Shown: positions 5,504 through 38,449 of the stretch, piece after piece
How the letters are laid out: each line of letters starts with the position of its first letter
Numbering within the stretch: position 1 is the stretch's first letter
Assembly: GCA_023386445.1 (NCBI GenBank)
Contig: JAEWJR010000087.1
Span: 1 to 40,000 of the forward strand
DNA length: 40,000 nt
From: Bacillota bacterium
Lineage (GTDB): Bacteria > Bacillota > Clostridia > Acetivibrionales > DSM-1351
Direction of reading: 5' to 3'
The notes under the pieces: generated by a model
Seen by the model: only the letters and a program-made list of their open reading frames with translations
The model's database searches: none
What the model was told of the DNA's origin: nothing
Program-made: the position numbers and the translations under genes

Positions 5504-5932
5504 ATGGATGCATCAAAAGTAATGAATGGAAGCTGGGGAGAAGTGTGGATGGATGGAGAGAAGATTTCCGAATGTACCGCTCTTCAGGCAAAAATTGATA
5601 TTAAAAAAGAAGACGTTCCCATGTGCGGCAGAGCTACACCGGGTAAAAAATTATCCGGCTGGGAAGGTAAAGGCTCTATGAAGTTAAATAAAGTTAATTC
5701 CCGTATGGCAATAAAGATCGGCAATCTTATAAGAACGGGCCAGGAGCTCAAGGTGACTATTGTTTCAAAGCTGGCAGACCCCGCGGCATACGGTGCCGAA
5801 AGAATCGTACTGAGGAATGCTTCATTCGATGATTTGACTCTTGCGGATTGGGCTGCTCAGAAAAATGGGGAAGTTGACTGCCCGTTTACATTTGAAGACT
5901 ATTACTTTATGGACGTAATAGTACCGCAATAA
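5504..5932 (+). CDS. tail tube protein (XkdM-like)
   Basis: 142-aa ORF directly after the sheath gene. The sequence VMNGSWGEVWMDGEKISE is typical of XkdM-type core tail proteins. Confidence 0.85.
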   Translation: MDASKVMNGSWGEVWMDGEKISECTALQAKIDIKKEDVPMCGRATPGKKLSGWEGKGSMKLNKVNSRMAIKIGNLIRTGQELKVTIVSKLADPAAYGAERIVLRNASFDDLTLADWAAQKNGEVDCPFTFEDYYFMDVIVPQ

Positions 5933-5980
5933 TGTGAGGGATGCCTCAAAATGAGAGAATTGCAAATAATCAAATACCCA

Positions 5981-6114
5981 TACCAGTGCGCGAGTACAAC
6001 TTCGATAGATGGGAAGCTCTGTTAAAAGTGCATGTCTGAAATTGTGGTGAACCATACAAATTTCAGACATGTACTTTGTGAGCAATCCATTTGTTGAAGT
6101 TAGTATGGGAGCAC
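5981..6114. repeat. structured repeat element, copy A (candidate ncRNA or MITE-like element)
   Basis: It shares 15-nt identical blocks with copy B: CGCGAGTACAACTTC (5989-6003) and TTGAAGTTAGTATGG (6094-6108). Smaller shared blocks include AAAAGTGC, GTGAACC.TAC and CTTTGTG.GCA. A 15-bp closing helix and a 13-bp internal hairpin are visible. Confidence 0.6.
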
Positions 6115-6182
6115 TATTTCAATTTTGTCAGGTTTGCGGCACCACCTTTATTAAACTTTATATAAAGACGGAGGGAAAGACA

Positions 6183-6575
6183 ATGAAAAATGTAATGGAT
6201 ATATTGCTCACAATGGATGAAAGCAGGCTTGAGGCATCAACCCGGGATATTGAAATAAAAAGGCTCTCTGAAGAAACCGGGGAAAAGGTGGTATTCACCT
6301 GCCACAGTCTTTCAATGGACAAGTACATTCAGATAAAGGAAAACGCAACAAACGGTGATGAGATTGACACACTTGAGCTGCAGATATTTGCCATCATCGA
6401 AGGTGTAAAAAACCCTAACTTTAAAAGTGACGAGCTCATAGGCAGGTTTAAGGCTGCAACACCCAAGGAACTGGTGAAAAAGCTGCTCCGCCCCGGAGAA
6501 ATAAACAGGATATTTGAAATCATATCTGAACTGTCCGGTTTTGGAGGAGATACGGTACAAGAAATAAAAAACTGA
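6183..6575 (+). CDS. tail assembly chaperone (XkdN-like), short form
   Basis: ORF 6069..6575 trimmed to ATG 6183, with a GGAGGG RBS. It sits between the tube and tape-measure genes. The sequence IEIKRLSEETGEKVVF is typical of XkdN-like chaperones. Confidence 0.75.
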   Translation: MKNVMDILLTMDESRLEASTRDIEIKRLSEETGEKVVFTCHSLSMDKYIQIKENATNGDEIDTLELQIFAIIEGVKNPNFKSDELIGRFKAATPKELVKKLLRPGEINRIFEIISELSGFGGDTVQEIKN

Positions 6576-6742
6576 TAAGGACGGATGGACGGACCAGCTT
6601 AATGTACTATTGCTGGAAAAAAGACAAAAGCATTCGTCCATCTGTCTTCTGGAACCAGTCCGAGGCTGATTGGCTTGTAATAGATGCGTTTGCCAGGCAG
6701 GAAATAGAGGATGAAAAAAATTCTCATATAAATGTTCTTTAA
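6183..6742 (+). CDS. tail assembly chaperone, -1 frameshift-extended form
   Basis: The slippery heptamer A AAA AAC (6566-6572) lies just before the stop. The -1 frame stays open for 57 more codons (..LIRTDGRTSLMYYCWKKDKSIRPSVFWNQSEADWLVIDAFARQEIEDEK..) and ends at TAA 6740-6742, immediately before the tape-measure RBS. Confidence 0.55.
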
Positions 6743-6756
6743 AAGGAGGTGACATT

Positions 6757-8745: not shown

Positions 8746-8747
8746 TT

Positions 8748-9362
8748 ATGGAATTTTGGTTGTCATACAATAACAGGGAAGAGATTTTACGGCTGCCTGT
8801 ACCGCCTCAGGAATTCCAAATAAGCCATGGAACAAATGTCAATGTGCTTGATATTAACACCTTTGGCGAAATTGCCGTAATAGGCAGGGGGAAATTAGCC
8901 GAGCTTGAGATTTCGTCCTTTTTTCCGGCACAGGAATACTCATTTTGTGTATATAAAGGTCTTCCTGAACCCTATGACTGTGTGAACCTTATTAAAAAAT
9001 GGAAGGATACCCGGCGGCCCATAAGACTTACTATAACAGGAACAAATGTAAACCTCGCCTGTGCCATAGAAAATTTCAGCTATGGAGAGAAGGATTGTAC
9101 CGGGGATGTTTATTTCACTCTAAACTTAAAGGAATACAGGTTCCCCGGCGCTCCCGGTTCAAAAATCATACCTGAATTAAAGGCCGCCAAGAGACCGGCT
9201 GAAAAAGCAATTCCGAAGAAATACACTGTTAAAAGCGGGGATTGTCTCTGGGCAATAGCAAAAAAGCTATATGGGGATGGGAGTAAATACTCCATATTGC
9301 TAAGTAAGAATAAAATACCTGACCCAGATTTAATTTATCCAGGTCAGACATTGGTGGTGTAA
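8748..9362 (+). CDS. LysM-domain tail protein (XkdP-like)
   Basis: 204-aa ORF with a C-terminal LysM motif, YTVKSGDCLWAIAKKLYGDGSKYSILLSKNKIPDPDLIYPGQTLVV. Confidence 0.85.
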   Translation: MEFWLSYNNREEILRLPVPPQEFQISHGTNVNVLDINTFGEIAVIGRGKLAELEISSFFPAQEYSFCVYKGLPEPYDCVNLIKKWKDTRRPIRLTITGTNVNLACAIENFSYGEKDCTGDVYFTLNLKEYRFPGAPGSKIIPELKAAKRPAEKAIPKKYTVKSGDCLWAIAKKLYGDGSKYSILLSKNKIPDPDLIYPGQTLVV

Positions 9363-9365
9363 AGG

Positions 9366-10376
9366 ATGAAGATTTTCGTTAAGAATTCCAAAACCAGCAG
9401 AGACATAACGGAACTTGTTGTTCGCATTACATGGAGCGGTTCATATTCACAGGTGGCAAGAAAGCTTGATATAACGGTTGCGTCATCCTGGACAGATTAT
9501 TATTTGCCGAAGGTTAATATTGAACTTGGTAATATTATTGAACTTCAACTTGGAAATAGTGTACTTTTCCAAGGGTACGTATTCGTAAAAACAAGGTCAG
9601 GCAAAGGAGATGCGCTTGAAATAACAGCTTATGACAGTGCCATATATCTTTTAAAAAACAAAGCTTCCTACAACTTTAAAAGGACCACGGCAGAACGTAT
9701 AGCAGCCGGTATATGCGCTGATTTCGGCATACAGGCCGGGGAATTTGCAGGCACAGGAATAGTACAAAGCTTTATTCCCATCGGTGAAACCTGCTATGAC
9801 ATAATAATCAAAGCATACAACAAAGCTTCCGAACAAAACGGTAAAAAATACATGGTTATAATGGACGGCAATAAGCTTTCTGTTATTCAGAAGGGCAGCT
9901 TGGCAATTGACTGTATACTTTATGACAGCAGAGACATAACAGACAGTACCTATAGCGAAAGTCTCGAGGATATGATAAATACCGTAAAAATAGTTGACGC
10001 AAATGGAAACCTGTCCGGGACGGTAATTGAAGCTGAATGGGTAAAAGCCTTCGGGCGTCTGGAGGATGTTTACCGGAAAGAAGAGGGTACAAATCCAGCT
10101 GTGGCTGCCAAGGCAATGCTTCATGGAATTACAAGAACCGGAACCGTAAATGCTGTTGGAAATGTTGACTGTATAACCGGGTACCTGGTTGGAGTAAAGG
10201 ATATATATTCGGACACCATACAGGGCTTTGTTATAGATTCCGATACCCACACCTGGGAAAATGGAGCATACACCATGCAGCTTGAATTGAATTTTGATGA
10301 TGTTATGAATGAAAAAACGTATATGAGTAAAAAGAAGAAAAAAAGCTCCAATATTTCTAAGCATTGGGACATGTGA
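9366..10376 (+). CDS. baseplate hub / late-control-D-like protein (XkdQ-like)
   Basis: 336-aa ORF. Size and synteny match xkdQ, after the LysM protein and before the small baseplate genes. Confidence 0.7.
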   Translation: MKIFVKNSKTSRDITELVVRITWSGSYSQVARKLDITVASSWTDYYLPKVNIELGNIIELQLGNSVLFQGYVFVKTRSGKGDALEITAYDSAIYLLKNKASYNFKRTTAERIAAGICADFGIQAGEFAGTGIVQSFIPIGETCYDIIIKAYNKASEQNGKKYMVIMDGNKLSVIQKGSLAIDCILYDSRDITDSTYSESLEDMINTVKIVDANGNLSGTVIEAEWVKAFGRLEDVYRKEEGTNPAVAAKAMLHGITRTGTVNAVGNVDCITGYLVGVKDIYSDTIQGFVIDSDTHTWENGAYTMQLELNFDDVMNEKTYMSKKKKKSSNISKHWDM

Positions 10377-10386
10377 GGGTGAAAGA

Positions 10387-10647
10387 ATGGATGATCCTTT
10401 TAAATTAATAATTGATGTAATGAGGAAGGAGGGGAGTATATACAACCCTCCTTCAGTGATGCTGGGGAAAGTAATAAACCCGGCTCCCGATTTATTGATC
10501 AGTGTCAACGGTCTGCAGCTTGACAAGGATGATCTGAAAGCTGCGGAATACCTGACAGGCTCTTTAAAAAACGGTGATGAGGTGGTAATACTCCCCGCGG
10601 CAGACAAAAAAGTATTTCTTATAATATGCAAGGTGGTGAGTTTATGA
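10387..10647 (+). CDS. small baseplate protein (XkdR-like)
   Basis: 86-aa ORF with an RBS. The assignment is by synteny with xkdR. Confidence 0.6.
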   Translation: MDDPFKLIIDVMRKEGSIYNPPSVMLGKVINPAPDLLISVNGLQLDKDDLKAAEYLTGSLKNGDEVVILPAADKKVFLIICKVVSL

Positions 10648-11069
10648 GTATATTTCCAGCTGTAGAAGAAGGGCAGGCGGAGGAAGTTCAGGAAATAGCG
10701 GATAGCGTTGTTTTAAGGGAGTATGCCTGGGACTTTATACGTAATGATTTTATATTTGAAAACGGCAGACAAAAGATTGCAGAAGGCCTGGAGGCATTAA
10801 AAATATGGGCGTACAAGGCTTTGGTAACAGAAAGGTATAAGTACCTGGCATATAGCTGGGATTATGGGCAGGAGATTGCAAATTTGATTGGCAGCAATAT
10901 ATCTTCAGAATTTGTTAAAAGTGAAGTGAAAAGGTACATCGAAGAAGCATTTTCGGTCAACCCGCATATCAAGGGAATAAAAAATCTCTCAACAGCAATT
11001 GAAGAGGATACAATCTCCGTTGATTTTACAATTTTAAGTGATTTAGGGGAGGTGGATATAAATGTATGA
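10644..11069 (+). CDS. baseplate wedge protein (XkdS-like, gp25/W-like)
   Basis: ORF 10626..11069 trimmed to ATG 10644, which forms an ATGA overlap with the previous stop. It lies directly upstream of the baseplate J gene. Confidence 0.65.
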   Translation: MSIFPAVEEGQAEEVQEIADSVVLREYAWDFIRNDFIFENGRQKIAEGLEALKIWAYKALVTERYKYLAYSWDYGQEIANLIGSNISSEFVKSEVKRYIEEAFSVNPHIKGIKNLSTAIEEDTISVDFTILSDLGEVDINV

Positions 11070-12111
11070 AGCCCAAACAGAGGAAGCAATAAAGCAAAGG
11101 ATGTTAGGCAGGATCAGCACTGATATAGACAAATCGGAAGGATCTTTTGTAAATGATGCGGTTGCACCTGTTTCTGTGGAACTGGCTCAAAGCTATATAC
11201 AGCTGGAAAGATTGCTGGCGCTGGCTTTTGCACAGACCTCATCAGGAAACTATCTGGACATGAGAGCCGGGGAATACGGGATAAGCCGTAATATGGGGGC
11301 AAGAGCAGCCGGTAGTGTCAGGTTTACAGGGAATAACGGAGTAGAAATACCTGTCGGCACTCAGATACAAACCGGCGGAGGACTTATCTATACAACAACC
11401 GACAGTGGAATTTTAACAGAAGGAATACTGGATTTGCAGGTTACTGCCGAGGATATAGGGATAAAATACAATGTGCCGTCAGGAAGCCTGATTCAATTGC
11501 CTGTACAGGTAGTAGGAATAACCGGGGTAACAAATATTGAACCAATTACAGGCGGAAGTGATATAGAAAGTGATCAGAGCCTGCTGCAAAGATTGTTGAT
11601 TAAGGTTAGGATGCCTTCAACATCCGGGAATGCCAACGATTATAAGTTGTGGGCTTTAAGTGTGGGCGGTATAGGTGACGCAAAAGTATTTCCCGTATGG
11701 GACGGCCCCGGAACAGTGAAAGTAATTGTTATTGATACAGAAAAGAAGCCGGCTAATATGAATCTTGTGTCAAGTGTTTCCGGGGTGATTGAAAACAACA
11801 GGCCTATTGGTGCCAAAGTAGATGTAGCTGCAGCACAACCGCTTATCATAGATATCAATGTTACAGTAGTAAAAGATTCCTCCCCTATCTTGGAGCAGAT
11901 AAAAGCGGAAGTTGCTGTAAAAGTCGGCGATTATTTAAAATCAATTGCTTTCAGACAGAGCTACGTGAGCTATGCACAGGTCGGTAATGCCATAATGCAG
12001 AGCAGCGGTATTGAGGATTACTCAAACCTGTTGGTAAATAACGGTTCTGCCAATATAACAGTAGGAGCAGAAGAGGTAGCAATTGTCGGGATGGTGACTG
12101 TAAATGAATAA
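11062..12111 (+). CDS. baseplate J-like protein (XkdT-like)
   Basis: 349-aa ORF. The N-terminus MYEAQTEEAIKQRMLGRISTDIDKSEGSFVNDAVAPVSVELAQ is typical of the Baseplate_J family. Confidence 0.9.
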   Translation: MYEAQTEEAIKQRMLGRISTDIDKSEGSFVNDAVAPVSVELAQSYIQLERLLALAFAQTSSGNYLDMRAGEYGISRNMGARAAGSVRFTGNNGVEIPVGTQIQTGGGLIYTTTDSGILTEGILDLQVTAEDIGIKYNVPSGSLIQLPVQVVGITGVTNIEPITGGSDIESDQSLLQRLLIKVRMPSTSGNANDYKLWALSVGGIGDAKVFPVWDGPGTVKVIVIDTEKKPANMNLVSSVSGVIENNRPIGAKVDVAAAQPLIIDINVTVVKDSSPILEQIKAEVAVKVGDYLKSIAFRQSYVSYAQVGNAIMQSSGIEDYSNLLVNNGSANITVGAEEVAIVGMVTVNE

Positions 12112-12643
12112 AGCTGATACTTTAAAATCCTATATACCTGAGCTTATTCTTAAGAGTAAGGTATTTAATGAAATATATGATACTCAAGGCACCGAGCTTG
12201 ATTCCTTGTGGGAATCAATTAACAGCATCCTGGACCAGTGTTTTGTTGATAAAGCTACCTGGGGACTAAAATTCTGGGAGGAATTTCTCGGTATACCTGT
12301 TGATGAGACAAGGGAGACAGACTTCCGGCGCGGGGTGGTCAAATCGAAAATACGTGGGGTTGGTACCGTAACAGTAAAACTGATGCAAACTGTTGCCCAA
12401 AGCTATGATAACGGAGAAATAAATATTATCGAAAATGCTGGTGAATACAGCTTTACAGTGAAATTTACCGGCATCAAGGGTATCCCTCCCAATCTGGACG
12501 ACCTGAAAAAAGCAATTGAAGAAATAAAGCCGGCCCATTTGCAAGTTATGTATACATTCAAATACAACATGTGGGATTATGTAAAAACACTGACATGGAA
12601 GCAAGTAAAAGAAAATACATGGGAAAACCTGAAAGTGAGGTAA
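12104..12643 (+). CDS. tail protein XkdU-like (DUF2313-type)
   Basis: 179-aa ORF overlapping the end of the baseplate J gene. The motif LPELIL..KVFNEIYDTQGTELD..W and the synteny both fit. Confidence 0.7.
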   Translation: MNKADTLKSYIPELILKSKVFNEIYDTQGTELDSLWESINSILDQCFVDKATWGLKFWEEFLGIPVDETRETDFRRGVVKSKIRGVGTVTVKLMQTVAQSYDNGEINIIENAGEYSFTVKFTGIKGIPPNLDDLKKAIEEIKPAHLQVMYTFKYNMWDYVKTLTWKQVKENTWENLKVR

Positions 12644-12647
12644 TGAG

Positions 12648-14066
12648 ATGTCGACAAACACAACCAATTATAACCTTGAAAAACCCGGCCTCAATGAGAC
12701 TGCCGATATTGAAGTAATCAATCAAAACATGGACATAATTGACACCGGCCTGAAAAATGTAAGTGATAAGGCCGACGGAAAAATCAGCAAGTCCCTGGCG
12801 ACTGCTGCAAATCAGTTCCTGCTGTCATCCTCGGTAGGACAGTTTGTTGTAAAAACTGTTGATGAAATAAAGTCTTTGCTTGGACTGAAGGGGGCAGCAG
12901 AGAAGGAATTTAACTCTGCTGGTGGTGTCGCTTCATATGATGCAGTTCAATCGCATTTGTCGGATTACGTGAGGCAGCCGGGGTATGCAATAGCAACAGG
13001 AAGTGTCAATTCATATGCTGTAACCTTAAGCCCGGCACCGACATCCTACATAGATGGAATGGGCATAGTTGTAAAAATCAGTGTAGCTAATACGGGTGCT
13101 GCGACAATCAATATTAATGGTCTTGGGGCAAAGCCTATGGTTGATGGTAAGGGCAATACTCTTACTTCCGGCAAGCTCAGGCTGAACGGTACCTATTCGC
13201 TCAAGTATAATTCCACATCAGGAAATTTTATATTACAGGGTAGCGATTCTTCCGGCGATGCTACTCCTGCTGATTTACTTGCCGGGAAAACTGCGAGCAC
13301 GGATGCAGGAGATATAACAGGAACAATGGCGTATAAAGCAGGTGCTTTTCCCGGTGGTGCGGCGGGAACTGATGGCAATGGCAATGTATCAATACCCATT
13401 ACCTCTGATGGGTACTATCCGGTTGGAGCAAGTGTATACTCATGGGATGGTGATTTTATCGCAGCAAATATCAGAGCAGATAGAAATATATATGGGTTAC
13501 AGGGTTCTATTCCTGTCAGAACCAATACCGATACAGGAGGCTCATATCCAGCAGCTGTAAATGATAGTGTTTACGACAGTAATATATATCTGATGCCTCC
13601 CGCAGGGTATTATGATGGCAACGTATGGGTGCATAGAGAACTGCCTGGATTAATAGCTGCAAACATTCGCCAAGGTGTTACAATTGGTACTGGTGGCAGT
13701 GGCAAGATTGTGGGAAGCTTTGCAGGCAAATCATGGTATCAAGGAACGGCAACAGCTGTTGGCAACATGGTTTTTTGGTACAATGATAATTCCTCTATGA
13801 ATGGGGCTGGTATAGAAGTACCGTTGAATTTGACATTTACTCCCAAAACTATACTTTTATGGCAGGCAAGTGGCCCGCAGGCGGGACAGCTTTGGTCTTT
13901 TTCAACAGATGAAGCAATCTACACAAATGGTAGATATCCTGAGGTAATGGCAAGATGGGGACGAGGATTTGCACGCGAAGGCACATATTGTTATATGGTG
14001 AGTACAGGTATTAGATTTCCTACTCCATCAGCAGGCTTTGAATATACATTTTTATTAATTGGTTAA
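12648..14066 (+). CDS. tail fibre / receptor-binding protein
   Basis: 472-aa ORF. The N-terminus TTNYNLEKPGLNETADIEVINQNMDIID is typical of phage fibre anchors. The middle is Gly/Ser/Thr-rich and the C-terminal domain is distinct. Confidence 0.75.
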   Translation: MSTNTTNYNLEKPGLNETADIEVINQNMDIIDTGLKNVSDKADGKISKSLATAANQFLLSSSVGQFVVKTVDEIKSLLGLKGAAEKEFNSAGGVASYDAVQSHLSDYVRQPGYAIATGSVNSYAVTLSPAPTSYIDGMGIVVKISVANTGAATININGLGAKPMVDGKGNTLTSGKLRLNGTYSLKYNSTSGNFILQGSDSSGDATPADLLAGKTASTDAGDITGTMAYKAGAFPGGAAGTDGNGNVSIPITSDGYYPVGASVYSWDGDFIAANIRADRNIYGLQGSIPVRTNTDTGGSYPAAVNDSVYDSNIYLMPPAGYYDGNVWVHRELPGLIAANIRQGVTIGTGGSGKIVGSFAGKSWYQGTATAVGNMVFWYNDNSSMNGAGIEVPLNLTFTPKTILLWQASGPQAGQLWSFSTDEAIYTNGRYPEVMARWGRGFAREGTYCYMVSTGIRFPTPSAGFEYTFLLIG

Positions 14067-14084
14067 TAAAGGAGGATGAATATT

Positions 14085-14369
14085 ATGCGAACTTTAGTAA
14101 TTTTTGATGAGGCAGGCTTTATAGTTAACCAAATGCGAGGTAGCGATTTAAGGGAGCCTGTCGGAATACCATTTTTATGGATTGAAATACCCGAAGGAAA
14201 ATATTTAAAAAGTATTGACGTAAGCGGAACAGAACATAAACCAGTATATGTGGATTTACCAAAATCAGAAACGCAAAAGCTACAAGAACTGGTCAACCAG
14301 CTAATAGTGGACAATCTGAACATGCAACAACAGATTGATACCTTAATAACAACAGGATTGGGGGTGTAA
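14085..14369 (+). CDS. hypothetical protein in the XkdW position
   Basis: ORF 14076..14369. ATG 14085 has better spacing from GGAGG (14071-14075). The C-terminus is a coiled coil. The assignment is by position only. Confidence 0.45.
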   Translation: MRTLVIFDEAGFIVNQMRGSDLREPVGIPFLWIEIPEGKYLKSIDVSGTEHKPVYVDLPKSETQKLQELVNQLIVDNLNMQQQIDTLITTGLGV

Positions 14370-14371
14370 AA

Positions 14372-14488
14372 ATGTTTGAGAGACTGAATTATTTATATCA
14401 TGCAGGTAAGCTTACGGCAGAACAGTTAGACATAGCAGTATCAAAGGTTTGGATTACAGCAGAACAAAAAACAGAAATAATCGGATAA
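14372..14488 (+). CDS. XkdX-family small phage protein
   Basis: 38-codon ORF not in the supplied track: MFERLNYLYHAGKLTAEQLDIAVSKVWITAEQKTEIIG. It matches my recollection of the XkdX pattern (Y...G..T.EQ......G.IT.EQ..EI.G) and sits in the XkdX position. Confidence 0.7.
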   Translation: MFERLNYLYHAGKLTAEQLDIAVSKVWITAEQKTEIIG

Positions 14489-15160
14489 GGATAATATAGC
14501 GAAATAAAAGGAGGTAGTATAAGTGACAGAACATATTAACAAAGGAAGCGAATCAACAGAAAAAGGAATGGCTGTCCTGGGTAGAGCAGAAGAACAGCCA
14601 ACAGTAATAAATTTTTCAACTAATATTACTATGAATACAGAGATCTCTTTAAGTAAGATAGTAAACAATATTAGTCTCGTGCTCCAAAGGAAATTCCTAC
14701 AATGGTCTGTAAATAAGATGAGAAATTTTATTTTTGACCGACTATTTGTGTTTGCATAGGGTGTAATGATTGCATTTTGGAGGACAATCGCTGAGGAATC
14801 ACTTATTAGTTTGAGATCTTTATTCTCTCCCGATAATTTCTCAATTTGATTGTTTCTACCAATAAAGCAATTTTCAATTATAATTTTGGTTATCGTTGCA
14901 GATGGGTCAGAAGGTATTTCATCATCCTTTACGTCGGATAAGCCAATTATCTTTCCTTCAATCATACCGAAATTAGTAAATATCATTACAGTTGTATCAG
15001 CAGATGTTGAAAGGCCTTCTATTTTACCAGATGTTAAGGTGTTTATAGTTACATTTATACTATCTAATGTAATAGATTTTAAATCTATGCGGTCTTTTAA
15101 TAGTTTAGGTAACTCATTTTTATTCACAAGTATCACTTCCCTTCCAGAAAATTCTATCAC
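14441..15160 (-). CDS. hypothetical protein on the opposite strand to the tail operon (uncertain extent)
   Basis: 239-aa ORF. The N-terminal 135 aa or so look protein-like and beta-rich (SINVTINTLTSGKIEGLSTSADTTVMIFTNFGMIEGKIIGLSDVKDDE). The C-terminal 100 aa are F/C/L-rich and overlap XkdX and the + ORF. It has a GTG start with no recognisable RBS. The segment is AT-rich. Confidence 0.3.
   Translation of the reverse strand: MIEFSGREVILVNKNELPKLLKDRIDLKSITLDSINVTINTLTSGKIEGLSTSADTTVMIFTNFGMIEGKIIGLSDVKDDEIPSDPSATITKIIIENCFIGRNNQIEKLSGENKDLKLISDSSAIVLQNAIITPYANTNSRSKIKFLILFTDHCRNFLWSTRLILFTILLKEISVFIVILVEKFITVGCSSALPRTAIPFSVDSLPLLICSVTYTTSFYFAILSLSDYFCFLFCCNPNL
14523..14759 (+). CDS. hypothetical small protein (uncertain; conflicts with the antisense ORF)
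   Basis: GTG start with a strong AAAGGAGG 7 nt upstream. 78 aa with a hydrophilic N-terminus. It overlaps entirely the 3' part of the minus-strand ORF 14441..15160. Confidence 0.3.
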   Translation: MTEHINKGSESTEKGMAVLGRAEEQPTVINFSTNITMNTEISLSKIVNNISLVLQRKFLQWSVNKMRNFIFDRLFVFA

Positions 15161-15296
15161 TAGGGAAGGAATTCGACAATGTGAAGATTAATAAAATGTG
15201 TAATTAATGTATAAAATTTAAAAGCACGGACTAAAAGGATTACTCAATAATGGGTAGTCCTTTGTTTATTACAAAAATCATGAAAGGGTGAGACAA

Positions 15297-15983
15297 ATGA
15301 AACAAGAAGGCAAATTCATTTTAATGGACCGGGATGAACTCAGGGTTTACATTGAAGGGCTGAAGGGAGCTAAGACCTTCAAAACTATCCAGCAGCATCA
15401 TACGGCAAGTCCGGCATATAAGGACGTTAAAAACAACCATTTTCAGTTAATGAAGGGTATGGAAAATTATCATGTCGGCACACTGAAAATGAGTGAAATA
15501 GCCCAGCACTTCAGCGCATTTCCTGATGGAACCATATGTGCAGGCCGGCCGCTTACAAAAGATGGCGGAGGGTTCCTGAATCCACTTAATAAGGACTCAA
15601 TAACTACTGAGAACGTTGGGAACTTTGATTCTGATATTATGACAGAGGATCAAACGCAAAGTATCATATTGCTGAATGCTCTTCTGTGCAAAAAGTTCAA
15701 TATAGTTCCTTCCACTTCAACGCTGATATATCATTGCTGGGTGCAAAACAAGTCGTGCCCGGGACTGAAATGGTTCGAAGGAAATACCAGGACAGCTGCG
15801 GAGAGATATTTTATACCTCTTATAAAAGCGGCAATGGAAGAGCCCATGACTTTTGAGCAAGCATTAGACATTGTTTCAAGGAAAGTAAATACGGTATATC
15901 CATACTGGCTTAAAAGAAGGGATATAGATCCGGCATTTTCAGCCTTAATTATAAAAGTTGCAAAAGCGTTTGGAGGTGAGTAG
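15297..15983 (+). CDS. N-acetylmuramoyl-L-alanine amidase (Amidase_2/PGRP-type endolysin)
   Basis: ORF 15288..15983, with ATG 15297 preferred. The motifs QQHHTAS, TENVGNFD and IYHCW..NKSCPG fit the amidase_2 fold. The holin gene follows. Confidence 0.8.
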   Translation: MKQEGKFILMDRDELRVYIEGLKGAKTFKTIQQHHTASPAYKDVKNNHFQLMKGMENYHVGTLKMSEIAQHFSAFPDGTICAGRPLTKDGGGFLNPLNKDSITTENVGNFDSDIMTEDQTQSIILLNALLCKKFNIVPSTSTLIYHCWVQNKSCPGLKWFEGNTRTAAERYFIPLIKAAMEEPMTFEQALDIVSRKVNTVYPYWLKRRDIDPAFSALIIKVAKAFGGE

Positions 15984-15984
15984 C

Positions 15985-16452
15985 ATGGAAAAGATTAATA
16001 CTTTTAAGGCTTCAACTGTTGCGTTATCAGCAAGTGTGTCAGCCGTGTTAGGGTGGTTCGGCTGGTTGGTCATAGCTTTTGTAGCATGCATGTCTGTGGA
16101 TTGGATTACCGGATCTATGGCTGCTTGGAAAAGAGGAGAGTGGGAAAGCAGGATTGCACGTGAAGGTATATGGCATAAAACAGGCAGTATTATAGCTGTT
16201 TTGGTAACATTAATACTTGATGCGGTTATTGGCAATGTAATAAATAATATTCCAAGTGTCTCACTGCCGTTTACCTACACAGTTCTTTTAAGTCCGGTAG
16301 TTATAGTATGGTACATACTCACCGAGCTTGGCAGTATAATTGAAAATGCGGGCAGGATGGGAGCTCCTGTACCTGGTTTCTTACAGAAGGCTATTGCACT
16401 TTTAAAGGAGAGTATTGATGCAGCAGGAGAGAAGACTACAGAAAATAAATAA
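15985..16452 (+). CDS. phage holin (holin_4_1 / toxin-secretion-lysis holin family)
   Basis: ORF 15958..16452 trimmed to ATG 15985, with a GGAGG RBS, right after the amidase stop. It has several TM helices and the motif DWITGSMAAWKRGEWESR. Confidence 0.85.
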   Translation: MEKINTFKASTVALSASVSAVLGWFGWLVIAFVACMSVDWITGSMAAWKRGEWESRIAREGIWHKTGSIIAVLVTLILDAVIGNVINNIPSVSLPFTYTVLLSPVVIVWYILTELGSIIENAGRMGAPVPGFLQKAIALLKESIDAAGEKTTENK

Positions 16453-20324: not shown

Positions 20325-20401
20325 TGGTACGCCCGACACGATTCGAACGTGCGACCTGCGGTTTAGGAAACCGACGCTCTATCCTACTGAGCTACGGGCG
20401 C
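20325..20401 (-). tRNA. tRNA-Arg (anticodon CCT), CCA encoded
   Basis: The hand-folded 77-nt cloverleaf reads GCGCCCG-TA-GCTC-AGTAGGATA-GAGC-G-TCGGT-TTCCTAA-ACCGC-AGGTC-GCACG-TTCGAAT-CGTGT-CGGGCGT-A-CCA. The anticodon loop has U33 and A37. Confidence 0.9.
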
Positions 20402-22456: not shown

Positions 22457-23533
22457 CTATTGCTGCTTCTGACCGCATTCGGGACAGAACTTGCTGCCGC
22501 CCGGCAGCTCATTTCCGCAACCTGCGCATTTAATAATGTCTGGTGATACCTTGTTTCCGCACTCTATGCAGAATTTCGCCTGTGCCGCCAGCTGAGCACC
22601 GCAGGCAGAGCATTTTATGGTGCCGGGCTCCTGGGCGGGTGCAGCGGTTTTGGGTTCAGCAGACTTTTGCTGTCCTGCCGAAAAGGCTTCTGCAAATATG
22701 CTGCCCAGACCCATTCCTGCTCCAAGCCCCACTCCTACACCGGCAGCTCCCCCGGAATTTTGGGCGGCATCCCTTATGGATTCCGCAGCCTGATATTTAG
22801 TGTATTGATTCAGACTATCACCTATGATACCCATGGAGGTGCGCTTATCAAGTACTTTTTCTACCTCCTCAGGGAGAGAAATATTTTCAATAACAAGTGA
22901 CGACAGGGTCAGGCCCAGCTCTGCAAAGGCATTATCCAGCTTGTTCCTGGACATTGCTGCTATTTCGTCATATTTTGAAGCCAGGTCCAGGGCCGGAACA
23001 GCCGCCTCTGCCAGAAGATCGGAAATACCTGAAACAATCTTGCTTTTAAGCTGTCCGGTGATCCCTTCGACGGTAAACAAACTTGCAGTTCCAAAAACTT
23101 CTCTCAGGAAAACCGATGGGTCAACTACCTTGAAGGAGTAAGTTCCGAACATTCTTATACGGAGCATTCCGAATTCCGCATCTCTCATCATTACAGGGTT
23201 CGTAGTCCCCCACTTGCAATTTGTATACTGCCTGGTATTAACAAAATATACCTCAGATTTGAAGGGAGAATTAAAACCGTACTTCCAGGACTTAAGTTTG
23301 GTCATTACAGGTAGATTCCTGGTATCGAGAGTATAGCTTCCCGGGGTAAAAACATCCGTAAGCTGACCTTCGTCAACAAAAACTGCCATCTGTGACTCTC
23401 TGACAGTGAGTTGAGCCCCCATTTTAATTTCCTTATTTTCAACAGGGAACCGATATACCATAATATTTGAGCTGTTATCGGTCCATTCTATTACTTCTAT
23501 AAATTGAGACTTGATGAAATCAAATAAACCCAT
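22457..23533 (-). CDS. SPFH/Band-7 domain protein with C-terminal double zinc ribbon (YdjI-like)
   Basis: 358-aa ORF with a GGAGG RBS. The N-terminus MGLFDFIKSQFIEVIEWTD is typical of the YdjI/virion-core-like SPFH family. A Gly/Ala-rich linker precedes CSACG..CIECG..CAGCG..CPECG. Confidence 0.85.
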   Translation of the reverse strand: MGLFDFIKSQFIEVIEWTDNSSNIMVYRFPVENKEIKMGAQLTVRESQMAVFVDEGQLTDVFTPGSYTLDTRNLPVMTKLKSWKYGFNSPFKSEVYFVNTRQYTNCKWGTTNPVMMRDAEFGMLRIRMFGTYSFKVVDPSVFLREVFGTASLFTVEGITGQLKSKIVSGISDLLAEAAVPALDLASKYDEIAAMSRNKLDNAFAELGLTLSSLVIENISLPEEVEKVLDKRTSMGIIGDSLNQYTKYQAAESIRDAAQNSGGAAGVGVGLGAGMGLGSIFAEAFSAGQQKSAEPKTAAPAQEPGTIKCSACGAQLAAQAKFCIECGNKVSPDIIKCAGCGNELPGGSKFCPECGQKQQ

Positions 23534-23742
23534 GGTTACCTCCGGATATCTAATTAATCCAAAATCAGTGTTTCTTTACCCTTATACTTTATCATAAATT
23601 CTTTTATTTGTGATATTTAACGGATAATTTATCGTTTTGCGCCGGTTTTAATTTATGGTTATCCTGGCGATAAATGGTATTTGCCAAAACAAAGGTTTTG
23701 CCACACAGGGAGACAGCTTTATAGTTGAATTTGTTATAGATT

Positions 23743-24015
23743 ATACCGGTACGCGAGTACAACTTCAAGCAATGGATAGCTCGGTAAAAGTGCTTTATGA
23801 AATTTGTAGGTAAACAACAGGTATTTTAGCCGGCAAAGTGACAGGAGGTCCCAGCTTGACTATCATGAAATTCATTCTAGTCAAGCGGAGCATCACGCGA
23901 GACCCGGATGGTCGAGTCGATACGACGGCAATAAATACTTGTTGTGAACCGTACTATTTCAAGCAAGCGCTTTGTGTGCAGCCATTGCTTGAAGTTAGTA
24001 TGGAAGTACCGGTAT
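23743..24015. repeat. structured repeat element, copy B (candidate ncRNA or MITE-like element)
   Basis: It has the same terminal blocks as copy A (23752-23766 and 23989-24003 are identical 15-mers). There is a perfect 15-bp closing helix AACTTCAAGCAATGG/CCATTGCTTGAAGTT plus an outer 10-bp helix ATACCGGTAC/GTACCGGTAT. An extra insertion of about 150 nt contains its own hairpins. Confidence 0.6.
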
Positions 24016-24259
24016 AAGCAGTACAATTTTTTACTGGTAATATTGATTAACCCAGTAGCACAACGCGTTAATTTTAAGGAAATCCGTGGAATTTATTTTA
24101 CCGATGTTCTATAATTGAATATAAATGATTTCTCAAACATTATATATGCAAGTTTTTTCAGAAAAAATGATAAACTAATAACTGAGTTTGTGAAAAGGGA
24201 TTTAAATTTTGGCGTATGTAATACAACGCAGCAAATTAATAATGACGGAGGTAGAAAAT

Positions 24260-26065
24260 ATGGCTTCAAACAAAGCGTTACCAAAGAGACAGGATATCGA
24301 CTCCAAATTCAAATGGAAGCTGGAGGATATTTATAGCGACAGCTCCTTATGGGAGCAGGACTTCAAAAAGGTAAAGGAACTGGCGGAGCAGATAAAGGGC
24401 CTGCAGGGCAAGCTGGCAGAGAGTGCACAAAGGCTGCTGGAATGCTTCAAAAAAAGTGATGAACTGTTATCGCTGAATGATAAGGTGTTTGTATACGCCA
24501 GAATGAAGAGGGATGAAAATAACGGGGATGCAGCCTATCAGGCTCTGACAGAGAGAGCGTCCTCACTGGCAACCGAGGTTTTTGCGGCTATTTCCTATAT
24601 AGTTCCTGAAATGCTCAGCATTCCTGAGGAGACACTGCTTTCATATGTAAACTCGGATAAGGAACTGTCTGTCTACATGTTCTCAATTAAAGAAAATTTA
24701 AGGCAGAAGGAGCATATCTTATCCGAAAAGGAAGAACATATACTGGCCATGTCGGCTGAAATATCCGATACCGCCGGAGATGTGTTTACAATGTTCAATA
24801 ACGCCGACATCAAATTCCCCTACATAAAGGATGAAGAGGGGGAAGAGATTGAGGTAACCAAAGGAAGATATATCGCATTTCTGGAGAGCAAGGACAGAAG
24901 GGTGAGAAAGGATGCTTTTGAGGCTGTTTACAGTTCCTATAAAAAGATGAAGAACACATTGGCTGCATCTCTGACAGGCAATGTCAAGAAAAACAGGTTT
25001 TATTCACTTGTACGCAAATATCCCTCTGCATTGGAGGCCTCACTGGACAATGACAATATTTCAGTGGATGTTTATACAACACTTATAGATACAGTCAGCA
25101 AGAATTTACCCTTGCTGGACAGATACCTGAAACTGCGTAAGAAGGTCCTGAAGCTTGACGAACTTCACATGTATGATCTATATGTTCCCATGGTTGAGGA
25201 ATTTGACAAGAAGATACCCTATGAAGAGGCCCGCACTATAGTGGCAGAGGCTTTGAAGCCTTTGGGAGAAGAATATGTAGGATATCTGCAAAAGGGTATG
25301 AACTCCGCATGGATAGACGTGTATGAAAATGAAGGTAAGACCAGCGGCGCGTATGCATGGGGGGCTTACAAGACCCATCCGTATGTTCTGCTCAACTACC
25401 AGGATAAAATAAATGATGTATTCACGCTTGCACACGAAATGGGGCATGCACTGCACTCCTACTATACCAATATGACCCAGCCCTATGTGTATTCGGAATA
25501 TAAAATATTTGTAGCAGAGGTGGCTTCAACAGTAAATGAATCTCTTCTTATGAGATACCTGCTGCCCAGAGCTTCAAGCAAACAGGAAAAGGCTTATTTA
25601 TTGAACCACTACCTGGAGGAATTCAGAGGAACAGTATTCAGACAGGTAATGTTTGCGGAGTATGAAAAAATCATACATGAAAAGGTAGAACAGGGAGAGG
25701 CTTTGAATGCGCAGGAACTCAGCGACATTTACTACGGACTCAACAAAAAATATTTCGGTGAAGCTGTAACCGTTGACGAGGATATAGCAATGGAATGGTC
25801 CAGGATACCTCATTTCTACAGCAGCTTCTATGTATATAAATATGCTACAGGCTTCTCCTCACCGACAGCCATAGCAGAAAAGATCCTTACCGAAGGAAAG
25901 CCGGCGGTTGACAAGTATCTGCAATTCCTGAAGAGCGGCGGATCAAATTACCCCCTGGAGCTGTTAAAGATTGCCGGCGTGGATCTCTCAACTCCGCAGC
26001 CTATCCAGGATGCACTGAATGTGTTTGAAAAGACGCTGGATGAACTGGAAGAACTCTTAAAATAG
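24260..26065 (+). CDS. pepF: oligoendopeptidase F (M3B)
   Basis: ORF 24209..26065 trimmed to ATG 24260, with a GGAGG RBS. It has the HEMGH zinc motif, and the N-terminus LPKRQDIDSKFKWKLEDIY is typical of PepF. Confidence 0.9.
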   Translation: MASNKALPKRQDIDSKFKWKLEDIYSDSSLWEQDFKKVKELAEQIKGLQGKLAESAQRLLECFKKSDELLSLNDKVFVYARMKRDENNGDAAYQALTERASSLATEVFAAISYIVPEMLSIPEETLLSYVNSDKELSVYMFSIKENLRQKEHILSEKEEHILAMSAEISDTAGDVFTMFNNADIKFPYIKDEEGEEIEVTKGRYIAFLESKDRRVRKDAFEAVYSSYKKMKNTLAASLTGNVKKNRFYSLVRKYPSALEASLDNDNISVDVYTTLIDTVSKNLPLLDRYLKLRKKVLKLDELHMYDLYVPMVEEFDKKIPYEEARTIVAEALKPLGEEYVGYLQKGMNSAWIDVYENEGKTSGAYAWGAYKTHPYVLLNYQDKINDVFTLAHEMGHALHSYYTNMTQPYVYSEYKIFVAEVASTVNESLLMRYLLPRASSKQEKAYLLNHYLEEFRGTVFRQVMFAEYEKIIHEKVEQGEALNAQELSDIYYGLNKKYFGEAVTVDEDIAMEWSRIPHFYSSFYVYKYATGFSSPTAIAEKILTEGKPAVDKYLQFLKSGGSNYPLELLKIAGVDLSTPQPIQDALNVFEKTLDELEELLK

Positions 26066-30660: not shown

Positions 30661-31995
30661 TCAGACAACAGCCGGTAGGGTCTTTGCCGTACAGGAGATA
30701 AGAAATTCCGTCAATTCCTCGGTACTATTTATTTTTATGTCCCCGTTACAGCGTGCAAGTTCATTTTGAACGATGCTGAGTCCAAAGCCTCTTGTTTTGG
30801 AGGGATTGTCCTTTGTAGAATATCCGGCGTTGAATATTTTACTTCTATCCGATTCCGGTATCATGGGGCCATTATTTGAAATGGAGATAACATAACGTTC
30901 TTCCTGTATATAGGTCTGAAGGTGAACGAATTTATTTTCCTTTTCAATACTGTTCATAGCTTCAAAAGCGTTCTCTATTATATTGGAAATGATGGTAACA
31001 GCCATATCTTCCGCAAGACCTGCTGAAGACAAAGGTTCCTCAAAATCTGCTCTTAACTCGATACCTTTTCTGAAAGCATTGTTATACTTTACGTTAATAA
31101 TTGCATCTACAAAATCATTGCCTGAATCTATGGATATATTTTTGGTAGAGCTGTTGTTTGCAAAATTATTTATATAGTGCTTGATCCTATCGATAGAATC
31201 GGATTTGTTAAGCGTACAAAGGCCATAGATGGTATTCAGGTGATTTTTGTATTCATGGCGTTCCTTGGCCACCATTTCATTAAAATCAAGGAGCTGGCGG
31301 ATGCTTTCCTTTTGCATTTCGTTTGCATACTGAAGGAGCTCAAGCTTTGAACCTTCCCGGAAGGCTGAAAACATGGCAACCATCAGAACTAAATAGATAA
31401 TAAATGAAAACAGGTTAAAAAGGTATGCTTTTTGGGGCTGGCCTGATAGAAAGATATTAACGAATACGAAAAATATTAATACGGTTGATATTATAACCAG
31501 TATTTGTTTATATTTTGACTGATAAGGGTTACTGTCGCTCAGCCATGCCAGATTGACAGGTTTTTTATAAAAGGCGAATAATCCAAGGACTTCAACTGTT
31601 TTGCTAATAATACTGCATATTAATACATAAAGGTTATTTTGCAGCAGTTCGTTCATAGGAATACTGGTAACCAACATGGCAAATGTTGCTACAATTATCT
31701 CGACTATAGTTACATAAGTTGTAATTAAAAAAACTTTTATCAGGCTTTTATATATTTTTCCATTAAATACATAGTTTAATGCAGCTACGGTAAGAATCAA
31801 TATGAGTACGGTATGAAAACCTGCCGGAATAAACAGTGATATCCAATAAGCATATATTGTATAAATTGTAATAAAAGATATGTATTTAAACTTCTTTTTA
31901 ATTATATTTTCCTTAAACCCGGATAACAAGGAAAATGCGTATATTATGATAAAACCCTCTAAAACAGTAAATAATACTTCACTGGCAGTAAACAC
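30661..31995 (-). CDS. agrC: AgrC-like membrane sensor histidine kinase (GHKL)
   Basis: 444-aa ORF with a GTG start and AAGGAGGG upstream. It has about 6 N-terminal TM helices, an H-box ERHEYKNHLNTIYGL, an N-box ISNIIENAFEA and a G-box GFGLSIV. Confidence 0.8.
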   Translation of the reverse strand: MFTASEVLFTVLEGFIIIYAFSLLSGFKENIIKKKFKYISFITIYTIYAYWISLFIPAGFHTVLILILTVAALNYVFNGKIYKSLIKVFLITTYVTIVEIIVATFAMLVTSIPMNELLQNNLYVLICSIISKTVEVLGLFAFYKKPVNLAWLSDSNPYQSKYKQILVIISTVLIFFVFVNIFLSGQPQKAYLFNLFSFIIYLVLMVAMFSAFREGSKLELLQYANEMQKESIRQLLDFNEMVAKERHEYKNHLNTIYGLCTLNKSDSIDRIKHYINNFANNSSTKNISIDSGNDFVDAIINVKYNNAFRKGIELRADFEEPLSSAGLAEDMAVTIISNIIENAFEAMNSIEKENKFVHLQTYIQEERYVISISNNGPMIPESDRSKIFNAGYSTKDNPSKTRGFGLSIVQNELARCNGDIKINSTEELTEFLISCTAKTLPAVV

Positions 31996-32023
31996 TTCGT
32001 ATTATCCCTCCTTACATAGATAC

Positions 32024-32067
32024 GAAAAAAGCCATAAATATATATACGGCGTACATATGTTTATGAC
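32024..32067 (-). terminator. hairpin plus U-tract between candidate agrD and agrC (attenuator or terminator)
   Basis: The minus strand reads GTCATAAACATATGTACGCCGTATATATATTTATGGC followed by TTTTTT. Confidence 0.45.
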
Positions 32068-32102
32068 TTTTCCCAGACTTGATTTCAAATTAATTAGTGA
32101 GG

Positions 32103-32207
32103 CTATTCTTTAGGCTCGTAGAAAAATATCAACTTCAAAACACCGACGCCTAACCCTGCAACATACGAAGAAAATAAACCGACTGACTTCAATAAATGTT
32201 TTTTCAA
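32103..32207 (-). CDS. agrD: candidate AgrD-like autoinducer propeptide (non-canonical, no Cys)
   Basis: 34-codon ORF not in the track, with a TTG start and GGAG 8 nt upstream: (M)KKHLLKSVGLFSSYVAGLGVGVLKLIFFYEPKE. It sits between agrB and agrC and ends in an E-P-K-E tail reminiscent of AgrD. Confidence 0.4.
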   Translation of the reverse strand: MKKHLLKSVGLFSSYVAGLGVGVLKLIFFYEPKE

Positions 32208-32289
32208 TAGAATCACTCCATTTTCGACATTTTATATATAAATAATCCCTCTAATTGACATGAAAGTCAATGGCTTTTTAAAAAATATA

Positions 32290-32856
32290 CTAAATTTCGT
32301 TAAAAAGTTTATTTTTGAACAGTTGGTACAGAGACAGCAAATAAATTATAGTTACAGAAACAAGCACTATTTGAGCTGGTATATAAAAATAATCAAGCAG
32401 TAATAGTGCAGGTGTTAAAACAGCCGCCAGTATTCTATAAGCTGCCTTTCTTTCATCCACCCTCCTGGTTCTGACAGGAGCAATAAATGCACCGGTTACC
32501 GTAAGAGCTATTACAAGTACAATCTGTACAGAGCCTGGGATTGCATCTGCTCTTCCGGCAAAAACGTTTATTGCCATTGTAATAAAGGATACGGCAAGGC
32601 AGACAAACTCGCTTTTTGCATGGTAGCCTCCTAAAATGGGACGAAGCAATAGTATAACTGCAAAAGCCAGCAGATATTCCAATGCAGCGGAGAACAGGGC
32701 AAAAACTATCAGCAGCAGGAGAAATTTATACAGATCGGAAAAAATACAAACAAGACCATACCGTATTCTCCTGGCTTCAGTCTCTGAGTATTCGGCATTG
32801 GAGATGACTGCTTCGGCGACTTTGTTTGCAAGTTTTCTGTAGAAGGTTATTTCCAT
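32290..32856 (-). CDS. agrB: AgrB-family autoinducer-processing membrane peptidase
   Basis: ORF 32290..32877 trimmed to ATG 32856, which has GGAGG upstream. It has multiple TM helices and the conserved block RPILGGYHAKSEFVCLAVS containing the catalytic His/Cys pair. Confidence 0.8.
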   Translation of the reverse strand: MEITFYRKLANKVAEAVISNAEYSETEARRIRYGLVCIFSDLYKFLLLLIVFALFSAALEYLLAFAVILLLRPILGGYHAKSEFVCLAVSFITMAINVFAGRADAIPGSVQIVLVIALTVTGAFIAPVRTRRVDERKAAYRILAAVLTPALLLLDYFYIPAQIVLVSVTIIYLLSLYQLFKNKLFNEI

Positions 32857-32946
32857 AAGGCCTCCGGCAATACACATTATAATAAAATGCTACCATATCA
32901 TAAGGCATAAGTGAAGAACAATTTGCGTTTTAGATGTCACAGACTG

Positions 32947-38302: not shown

Positions 38303-38449
38303 AGTTGTATCCTTAATGAATTATTGTGATAGTATGCCCAAAAACAAAAAATCATTATTCATCAGCCTTTTTATTGAATTATGTATGGGAGCAAACAAAT
38401 ATGAAATATGGCTCCATATTTGTAATACCCCCTCGTGAAATTTGAATAT

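Follow-up and report, generated by a model that had tools for sequence, protein, structure and literature searches.

Two structured intergenic elements on a Clostridia contig are probably worn copies of a dispersed repeat that carries the TwoAYGGAY RNA motif

Introduction

The question raised by this locus is whether two look-alike, hairpin-forming stretches of intergenic DNA represent a structured RNA or a mobile repeat. They lie in the window studied here, which is the whole 40,000-nucleotide stretch formed by positions 1 to 40,000 of contig JAEWJR010000087.1 (assembly GCA_023386445.1, a Bacillota bacterium of the Acetivibrionales), and are called copy A, between two tail genes, and copy B, upstream of the oligoendopeptidase F gene pepF and on the same strand. 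The original prediction, made from the letters alone, placed them at 5980-6114 and 23743-24015 and treated structured RNA and mobile repeat as alternatives. We find that the family to which both copies belong is at once a repeat that spreads and decays and a structured RNA, or failing that a single-strand structure, and that copies A and B are a new sighting of TwoAYGGAY (RF01731), a known RNA family of unknown function, and not a new class.

Weinberg et al. (PMC2864571) described TwoAYGGAY in 2010, with examples from Clostridiales, gamma-proteobacteria and metagenomes of the human gut. The passages of that paper that concern the motif grade it as probably an RNA and not cis-regulatory, call its P1 stem 'often very large', and include several copies from Psychromonas in the alignment. 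In the passages that Gardner and Eldai devote to the motif, binding by CsrA is proposed on the basis of the two GGA loops, and tandem G-A pairs are recorded in the stem of one hairpin (PMC4333381). We found no later functional work on TwoAYGGAY; preprint 10.64898/2026.09.22.753630, on the mining of prokaryotic non-coding elements with a genome language model, lies outside this negative, names RF01731 nine times and may have a bearing on what the family does.

Results

Copies A and B share a structured core

The sequence observations behind the original prediction were correct, and copies A and B are confirmed as structured look-alikes. The 15-mer CGCGAGTACAACTTC occurs at 5989-6003 and 23752-23766, the 15-mer TTGAAGTTAGTATGG at 6094-6108 and 23989-24003, and the internal blocks AAAAGTGC, GTGAACC.TAC and CTTTGTG.GCA were all found in both copies. 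The closing helix, CTTCGATAGATGG/CCATTTGTTGAAG in copy A and CTTCAAGCAATGG/CCATTGCTTGAAG in copy B, stays paired through the two double changes that had been pointed out (from A to B, U-G to G-C and A-U to C-G), and two further pairs go from G-U to A-U. A second helix is likewise paired in both, AAAGTGC pairing with GTACTTT in copy A and with GCGCTTT in copy B. The outer helix described for copy B, ATACCGGTAC/GTACCGGTAT, is present, and copy A has a shorter, covarying counterpart of it (AGTGC/GCACT).

The first coordinates take in the cores only, and the elements are longer than first drawn, with paired arms that reach to ~23690-24071 in copy B and to ~5936-6148 in copy A, where the arms GAGGGATGCCTCAAAATGAGAGAATTG and CAATTTTGTCAGGTTTGCGGCACCACC are mutually paired. 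The TA beside copy B, put forward earlier as a possible target duplication, sits within this longer stem and is therefore not one. On the + strand copy A folds at -66.8 kcal/mol (z = -9.5 against shuffled sequence), which is 22 kcal/mol better than on the - strand (-44.9 kcal/mol), and copy B folds at -118.9 kcal/mol (z = -9.8), 10 kcal/mol better than on the - strand (-108.5 kcal/mol). Extending copy A to 5933-6150 gives a fold of -90.4 kcal/mol (z = -9.7).

The copies belong to a dispersed repeat family

Species-representative genomes were scanned with the pattern GCGAGTACAACTTCNNNNNATGG, which gave 64 loci. Most of these belong to two genomes of Ruminiclostridium cellobioparum, DSM 1351 and CT1112 (the latter of subsp. 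termitidis), or to one of several Bacillota metagenome-assembled genomes (MAGs). Fetched loci are labelled here with L numbers. A profile search of 0.51 Mb of fetched DNA with nhmmer recovered 66 copies or fragments, comprising 49 full copies, 8 internally deleted copies that differ in their deletion end points, and 9 fragments. At least four subfamilies were distinguished, and the three best-sampled genomes hold at least 22, at least 17 and at least 16 copies, all of these numbers being lower bounds that count the fetched DNA only. A third weak repeat in the window, at 38367-38394, was considered as a further family copy and rejected for want of a 5′ partner and a profile match. Scans of viral contigs with a 14-mer and an 18-mer gave chance matches only, those inspected lying in coding sequence and none having the partner motif, and a BLAST search of both copies against phage genomes returned nothing meaningful.

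In most loci the 3′ motif stands 205-209 nt after the 5′ motif, which makes the usual core ~245 nt long. The intact element holds this core within a hairpin of 330-390 nt, with outer paired arms that extend 45-75 nt on either side, and the full subfamily-1 element L163:775-1136 folds as a single hairpin at -170 kcal/mol (z = -18). Read from base to tip, the element begins with the outer arms, a helix (GGTAC/GTACC or AGTGC/GCACT) and a 4x4 internal loop in which GYGA stands opposite GGRA; above this loop come three helices with the conserved unpaired blocks UAAAAG, GGUGAA, UGAAC and CUUUGUGUGC between them, and the tip is a three-way junction of the form GCCGGC-AAAGUGAC-AGGAKG-GUCACUUU-GAGCAGC...CGAGACC-CGGAU-GGUCGAG...GCUGC-GACGGC. 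The two GGA loops of the tip lie ~30 nt apart and are conserved in intact copies, with GGA present in loop 1 of 33/37 full copies and in loop 2 of 36/37; some loops have CGA or UGA in its place. The 3′ half of the internal loop is GGRA in 33 of the same 37 copies, while the 5′ half was fixed by the scan pattern and its invariance is therefore uninformative. The best-conserved parts of the element are the unpaired nucleotides of the core and the non-palindromic apex.

That the helices are kept by compensating changes, first proposed from two copies, holds on the larger alignment. Across 37 full cores and 68 pairs, 97.2% of cells are paired and 28 of the 68 pairs are changed on both sides, a result matched by 0 of 500 shuffles, whereas controls with slid alignments reached 31-39% paired cells (about 35%). 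G-U cells exceed A-C cells by 125 to 23, an excess which argues that the selected structure belongs to one strand, written here as +, although prediction of the structure on the + strand somewhat favours + in this count.

Intact relatives match the TwoAYGGAY model

The gathering score of RF01731 is 43 bits. Two intact relatives pass it (L157 at 49.6 bits and L161 at 47.3 bits) and a third falls below (L163 at 40.7 bits), and the matches of these relatives cover the whole model. Both threshold-passing copies are included in the family profile of 37 full copies, to which copy B is homologous at 221 bits. Searches of copies A and B themselves gave no match to RF01731 at the gathering threshold nor at E <= 10, only matches at chance level, which is explained by the missing apex of copy A and the broken hairpin 1 of copy B. 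With the default filters of Rfam, 1 of ~20 copies in 18 loci was reported. As most copies are under the threshold or filtered out, the R. cellobioparum lineage stands at the edge of the RF01731 model.

A separate observation concerns the arms. In the supplementary alignment of PMC2864571, the human-gut TwoAYGGAY sequence hgutS7/S8_177709 has arms ending in AGGGUGUCAAAGG and CCUUUUGACACCCU, which resemble the ends GGATGTCNCAAAA and TTTTGCGACATCC of subfamily 2 in our set. The outer arms may, judging from this resemblance, be conserved between hosts that are far apart.

Copies A and B are worn in different ways

Copy A is a subfamily-2 member without an apex, both GGA hairpins being deleted. It aligns to the profile at positions 2-65 and 165-241 only, with ~100 central positions deleted, and the two pieces on either side of the lost apex score 44 and 57 bits. 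The junction lies near 6045/6046, between two GGTGAA repeats that are present in full copies, and the apex was lost through a deletion between these flanking repeats. An identical short form occurs at L172 and L191-L193, and seven other short forms have differing end points; they are independent decay events and not a conserved 'mini' form.

Copy B is a subfamily-1 member of near full length that carries an additional 37-nt insertion. Since copy A is an apex-deletion derivative and copy B is near the standard length of the family, the earlier description, in which copy B adds ~150 nt to a simpler copy A, has the polarity reversed. The apex of copy B is homologous to the TwoAYGGAY three-way junction (GCCGGC ... 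GACGGC) and has its GGA triplets at 23844-23846 (loop 1) and 23906-23908 (loop 2). Hairpin 1 retains GGA, and its 5-nt 3′ arm (A[C/T]TTT) is replaced by the 37-nt hairpin; the stem CTTGACTA/TAGTCAAG, formerly assigned to a domain added in copy B, is this B-specific insertion, and it breaks the conserved hairpin. Hairpin 2 is intact (GACC-CGGAU-GGUC), with one mismatch in its lower stem, and contains the tandem G-A (CGAGACC/GGTCGAG, 23898-23915) that is also found in full copies. Near the base, the 3′ half of the internal loop reads GGAA (24002-24005), and the helices that flank the loop covary. The inner 25-40 nt of the left arm are homologous to the arms of L148 and L175, and its outer end is degenerate, with GGTTTTGCCAC where the family has TTAACNCGTTGTGCCAG. 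The right arm ends in the intact family end sequence GCACAACGCGTTAA (24058-24071), the only end sequence that copy B keeps.

Small insertions are also nested within repeat copies of two MAGs, at ~5100-5290 of L170 and ~1150-1230 of L174. Their inverted ends are AGTCAATTAC...GTAATTGACT and AGTCAATTTCT...AGAAATTGACT, each then followed by TTGG, and they may represent a second tiny repeat family. The 37-nt insertion of copy B (TTGACTA...TAGTCAA) resembles them with the order of the arms reversed.

Copies sit at gene ends and differ between close relatives

The copies are intergenic. Convergent genes flank 18 of them and divergent genes flank 2, of which copy B is one. Their cores lie 40-90 nt from stop codons, so that the arms often begin directly after the stop codon.

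At the locus of copy A, R. cellobioparum DSM 1351 has an empty site: its spacer is 59 nt long versus 250 nt in the window, its tube protein is 96% identical, and the left flank can be aligned as far as GAGGGA and the right flank from TTTATT onwards. In DSM 1351 the 15 nt between these points belong to a terminator-like hairpin, AGAGGGACGGAU-AAU-CCGUCCCUUU, where the window has the ~205-nt element instead. The hairpin of DSM 1351 (GGGACGG-AUAAU-CCGUCCC-UUUAUU) folds at -17.9 kcal/mol, and a more distant relative (L210) has GGGAGCC...GGCUCC-UUUU in the same place. Copy A retains a basal stem and UUUAUU where DSM 1351 has its hairpin. Comparison of the window with DSM 1351 revealed no target duplication at copy A, 15 nt having been replaced, and a simple terminator scan of the window copies called no terminator.

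Two relatives, L202 and L203, with pepF 95% and 92% identical, lack the ~380 nt of copy B (its limits being about 23676/23690 and 24062/24071), and DSM 1351 has a 65-nt stub at this locus that ends in the end-like sequence CCGGTATAACGAGTTA. We infer that the insertion at this locus would be older and largely deleted in sister lines; the comparison of filled and empty sites showed no clean target duplication. A subfamily-3 copy that is present in CT1112 and missing from DSM 1351 is flanked by a 13-bp direct repeat, and has a truncated end and 11 extra bases.

The ends of the elements are of two kinds. Subfamilies 1 and 3 have the ends TTAACNCGTTGTGC and GCACAACGNGTTAA in common, though their interiors have diverged, while subfamily 2, to which copy A belongs, has the same core with the quite different ends given above. 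AT-rich direct repeats of 7-11 nt (TAANTTA-like) flank ~9-10 of the 16 copies that have both ends, and the central base of these repeats matches between left and right (G/G, C/C, C/C) and is not complementary. In the fetched DNA, matches to the end sequences all fall within repeats, bar ~ten scattered solo ones, the number expected by chance.

We conclude that the family is multicopy, that its one-strand structure is kept by compensating changes and that it comes and goes between close relatives; its copies decay by deletions between short repeats and lie mostly at the 3′ ends of genes. The mobile side of this description rests on at least 16-22 copies per genome, presence or absence at the loci of copies A and B, conserved ends, and many decayed copies.

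Further observations were made at the fetched loci. Members of subfamilies 3 and 1 stand beside each other on opposite strands, 130-240 nt apart, at three independent loci among L133, L141, L144 and L162, L133 and L144 being orthologous; an example is L144:3312-3536 (-) and 3772-4014 (+). A fourth pair of these subfamilies, in L156, is 1.3 kb apart. Such side-by-side copies suggest insertion beside existing copies or a shared target. In CT1112, L141:114-204 holds a glycine riboswitch aptamer (RF00504, 58.7 bits) that is unrelated to the repeat. On the metagenome contig L209, a DDE_Tnp_1 insertion sequence (L209:1-380) stands in place of the tail-terminator gene, immediately upstream of that for the sheath; it was considered as a partner of the repeat and rejected, its ends being unrelated to those of the repeat.

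Genomic setting of the two copies

The features of both loci are listed in Table 1. Copy B is housed in the 726-nt gap between the SPFH gene and pepF (23534-24259), as the original prediction had it, and proteins of the window have identical counterparts on a metagenome contig of 139 kb in ENA.

Table 1. Features of the copy A and copy B loci (positions in the window)
Feature	Positions	Strand	Basis
Copy B core	23743..24015	+	221 bits (E = 3.5e-66) over positions 2-243 of the nhmmer profile built from 37 full copies
Copy B left outer arm	23690..23742	+	Flank comparison; homology break against relatives at ~23676-23689
Copy B right outer arm	24016..24071	+	Right homology break against relatives at ~24062-24067
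Copy B apical domain	23829..23929	+	Comparison with the family alignment and Rfam alignments of relatives
Copy B 37-nt hairpin insertion (CCAGCTTGACTATCATGAAATTCATTCTAGTCAAGCG)	23851..23887	+	Comparison with the closest relative, L175, and 36 other full copies
GCGA, 5′ half of the 4x4 internal loop of copy B	23753..23756	+	Partner GGAA at 24002-24005
Copy A, entire element	5936..6148	+	Fold and subfamily-2 alignment; boundaries from the empty site in L205
Copy A core	5980..6119	+	nhmmer; comparison with L157
SPFH/Band-7 protein gene, flanks copy B	22457..23533	-	Pfam assignments of an identical protein in L197
Oligoendopeptidase F gene (pepF), flanks copy B	24260..26065	+	Product 98% identical to R. 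cellobioparum pepF
Contractile-tail tube protein gene (DUF2001, XkdM-like), flanks copy A	5504..5932	+	
XkdN-like tail assembly chaperone gene, flanks copy A	6183..6575	+	

Positions 1031-16452 form a PBSX-like contractile-tail gene cluster, and copy A lies inside it, between the tube and chaperone genes. The order is ImmA/IrrE-HTH regulators, connector, tail terminator, sheath, tube, XkdN-like chaperone, tape measure, LysM, YqbQ, sheath initiator, baseplate J, Gp48, amidase and holin. Within the window it shows neither capsid nor packaging genes, so the cluster could be tailocin-like rather than a full prophage. A tRNA-Arg (CCU) gene at 20325-20401 (-), the sole Rfam or ARAGORN match in the window, has the side of the tail cluster to one hand and the SPFH operon to the other. 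An agr-like pair, with AgrB (32290-32877) beside a GHKL sensor kinase (30661-31995), occupies 30661-32877 (-).

Discussion

We consider it probable, though well short of settled, that R. cellobioparum and its relatives harbour a dispersed, spreading and decaying intergenic repeat that carries a structured RNA, and that copies A and B are two of its worn members. According to this model the element would be copied into, or in place of, gene-end hairpins and would be co-transcribed with the upstream gene as a very stable 3′ or intercistronic structure. Selection at the RNA level, probably for protein binding through the two GGA loops, would keep intact copies folded, and CsrA, the published and leading guess, might be the protein that is bound. 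As copy A has lost the whole GGA domain and copy B has one GGA hairpin broken, both window copies are most likely relics that are now at most stable hairpins. Copy A, placed between the genes for tube and chaperone, may still serve there as an attenuator or a terminator.

Several observations weigh against this model. Loss of the apex is frequent (8 internal deletions) and whole copies are lost as well, which shows that many copies are not under selection, so that the covariation may reflect the needs of spreading and not any benefit to the host. The loops of the family read NGGAK and not AYGGAY, and most copies are under the Rfam threshold or filtered out. In co-directional contexts 19 copies have the orientation of the genes and 11 the opposite one, with orthologues counted twice, and outside convergent and divergent contexts orientation relative to neighbouring genes is little informative. 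Matches that look like promoters or terminators occur around both copies no more often than by chance. With respect to the mechanism of spread, the three comparisons of filled and empty sites gave no consistent target duplication, the fetched 0.51 Mb contained no insertion sequence with the ends of the family, and no helper gene recurs beside the copies, where only common paralogues (sensor kinases, ABC transporters and chemotaxis receptors) were found.

Some of the same evidence could be claimed for a classical miniature inverted-repeat transposable element (MITE), in which an insertion sequence with a DDE transposase would have given rise, by deletion, to a non-autonomous element that is moved in trans via its terminal inverted repeats and whose internal structure is incidental or tolerated. 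A MITE would account for a multicopy family with presence/absence differences, for ends common to subfamilies 1 and 3 around diverged interiors, for the AT-rich direct repeats with their matching central base, and for the 13-bp direct repeat around one insertion. However, in 0 of 3 filled-versus-empty comparisons do the ends occur together with a duplication of fixed length: copy A stands in for 15 nt of a hairpin with no duplication, and the insertion with the 13-bp repeat combines a truncated end with extra bases. Subfamily 2 carries the common core between quite different ends, which inverts what is usual in MITEs, where ends are shared and the interior varies; no insertion sequence bounded by such ends turned up in 0.5 Mb; and the unpaired core nucleotides and non-palindromic apex are the parts best conserved, with G-U exceeding A-C. 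For the plain MITE that the original prediction had named as its refutation, neither a clean duplication of fixed length nor a matching insertion sequence was found in the fetched DNA, and the absence of clean duplications, the two end types and a core better conserved than the ends weaken this account to the point where we regard it as unlikely. A palindrome acting at the level of DNA, either a protein site or a cruciform like those of REP/BIME elements, with arms kept complementary by templated quasi-palindrome mutation and no RNA function, would fit an element that is mostly an imperfect inverted repeat, the recurrent deletions between short direct repeats that typify the instability of hairpin DNA, and the placement at gene ends and between convergent genes, as in REP elements. 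It is weakened by the strand asymmetry, seen in the G-U to A-C count and in the fold of the + strand of copy A, and by an apex that is not a palindrome and that matches an RNA covariance model; the two hairpins on its three-way junction are unlike each other, and it has conserved loops and tandem G-A. We hold a purely DNA-level palindrome to be very improbable.

Could the copies instead be free-standing small-RNA genes, spread by gene duplication and not by mobility, that jointly soak up CsrA or some other protein that binds GGA, as a distributed sponge, every copy having a promoter and a terminator of its own? In favour of this, ACAGGAUGU in subfamilies 2 and 3 is close to the CsrA consensus obtained by systematic evolution of ligands by exponential enrichment (SELEX). 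The two conserved GGA hairpin loops of each intact copy are the feature on which the proposal of CsrA binding for the motif was based (PMC4333381, in the passages on TwoAYGGAY). Against it, the flanks are unrelated past the arms, with no conserved promoter upstream, copies sit tightly between stop codons or within operons, and the GGA domain is lost in many copies, with CGA or UGA in some of the remaining loops. We judge free-standing sponge genes improbable. A cis-regulatory leader or riboswitch, serving pepF at copy B and the tail genes at copy A, would agree with the position of copy B upstream of pepF on the same strand and with that of copy A between two co-transcribed tail genes. Yet the genes that have the same element beside them are unrelated and number in the dozens, with the element mostly next to the 3′ end, and relatives with pepF 92-98% identical, or with the tube protein 96% identical, are without the element at these loci; the empty orthologous sites exclude a pepF leader, and we give the leader account as a whole almost no credence. 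A bolder idea, which we rate a long shot, is that TwoAYGGAY elements are a distinct kind of mobile structured RNA that copies itself into terminator hairpins at gene 3′ ends, or takes their place, without the signature of a classical transposase, and so scatters dual-GGA protein-binding modules over many 3′ untranslated regions, which together could buffer CsrA or a similar regulator genome-wide; possible routes would be hairpin-templated copying or an RNA-mediated one.

Both copies look like relics, so the biological weight of the window alone is small. TwoAYGGAY has been in Rfam since 2010 without a known function, and R. cellobioparum is a culturable host with ~20 or more copies per genome, in which natural knock-outs are at hand as copies without the apex or without one GGA hairpin and as strains with empty sites. 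The placement of the copies also indicates a habitat, namely gene 3′ ends and terminator hairpins. Intact relatives had to be fetched before the family could be recognised as TwoAYGGAY, and as most copies of the lineage escape the Rfam model, intergenic structured elements of this kind will keep appearing as apparent novelties.

Among known repeats, the Correia, RUP, ERIC and bcr1 elements are a few hundred bases long, have no open reading frame, occur in many copies, form a long hairpin and are intergenic. Their size varies by internal deletion or insertion, they differ between strains, and they are often co-transcribed with their neighbours. The repeat described here resembles these bacterial MITEs in being short, free of open reading frames, multicopy, hairpin-forming, intergenic and variably present, and differs from them in its two unrelated end types, in a non-palindromic apex with an RNA motif, and in that no partner insertion sequence or uniform duplication was found in the fetched DNA. 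The REP/BIME elements of enterobacteria are palindromic, lie at gene 3′ ends or between convergent genes, and can stabilise the upstream mRNA; REPs are ~35-40 nt long and tied to RAYT transposases. Unlike these, the elements of our family are ten times longer and strand-asymmetric and carry an Rfam-class RNA motif, and no RAYT-like gene recurs among the neighbours of copies in the fetched loci. As in the sponge RNAs CsrB and RsmZ, GGA is shown in hairpin loops, binding of CsrA being only proposed for TwoAYGGAY in the passages of PMC4333381 on the motif; in contrast to CsrB and RsmZ, the family has two GGA sites per copy, no sign of its own promoter, and dispersed, decaying copies rather than one or two dedicated genes.

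The closest likeness is to TwoAYGGAY itself, with which the R. cellobioparum family shares adjacent hairpins with GGA loops, tandem G-A in one stem, a large closing stem, several copies per genome and Clostridiales hosts. The family departs from the published motif in its loops, which read CAGGAKG and CCGGAUGG or ACAGGAUGU instead of AYGGAY. Relative to the published passages on the motif, it also adds a basal module (the GYGA/GGRA loop and three covarying helices), outer arms, and a behaviour of insertion and decay. Its extended architecture, like its tie to terminator sites and its series of decayed forms, goes beyond those passages.

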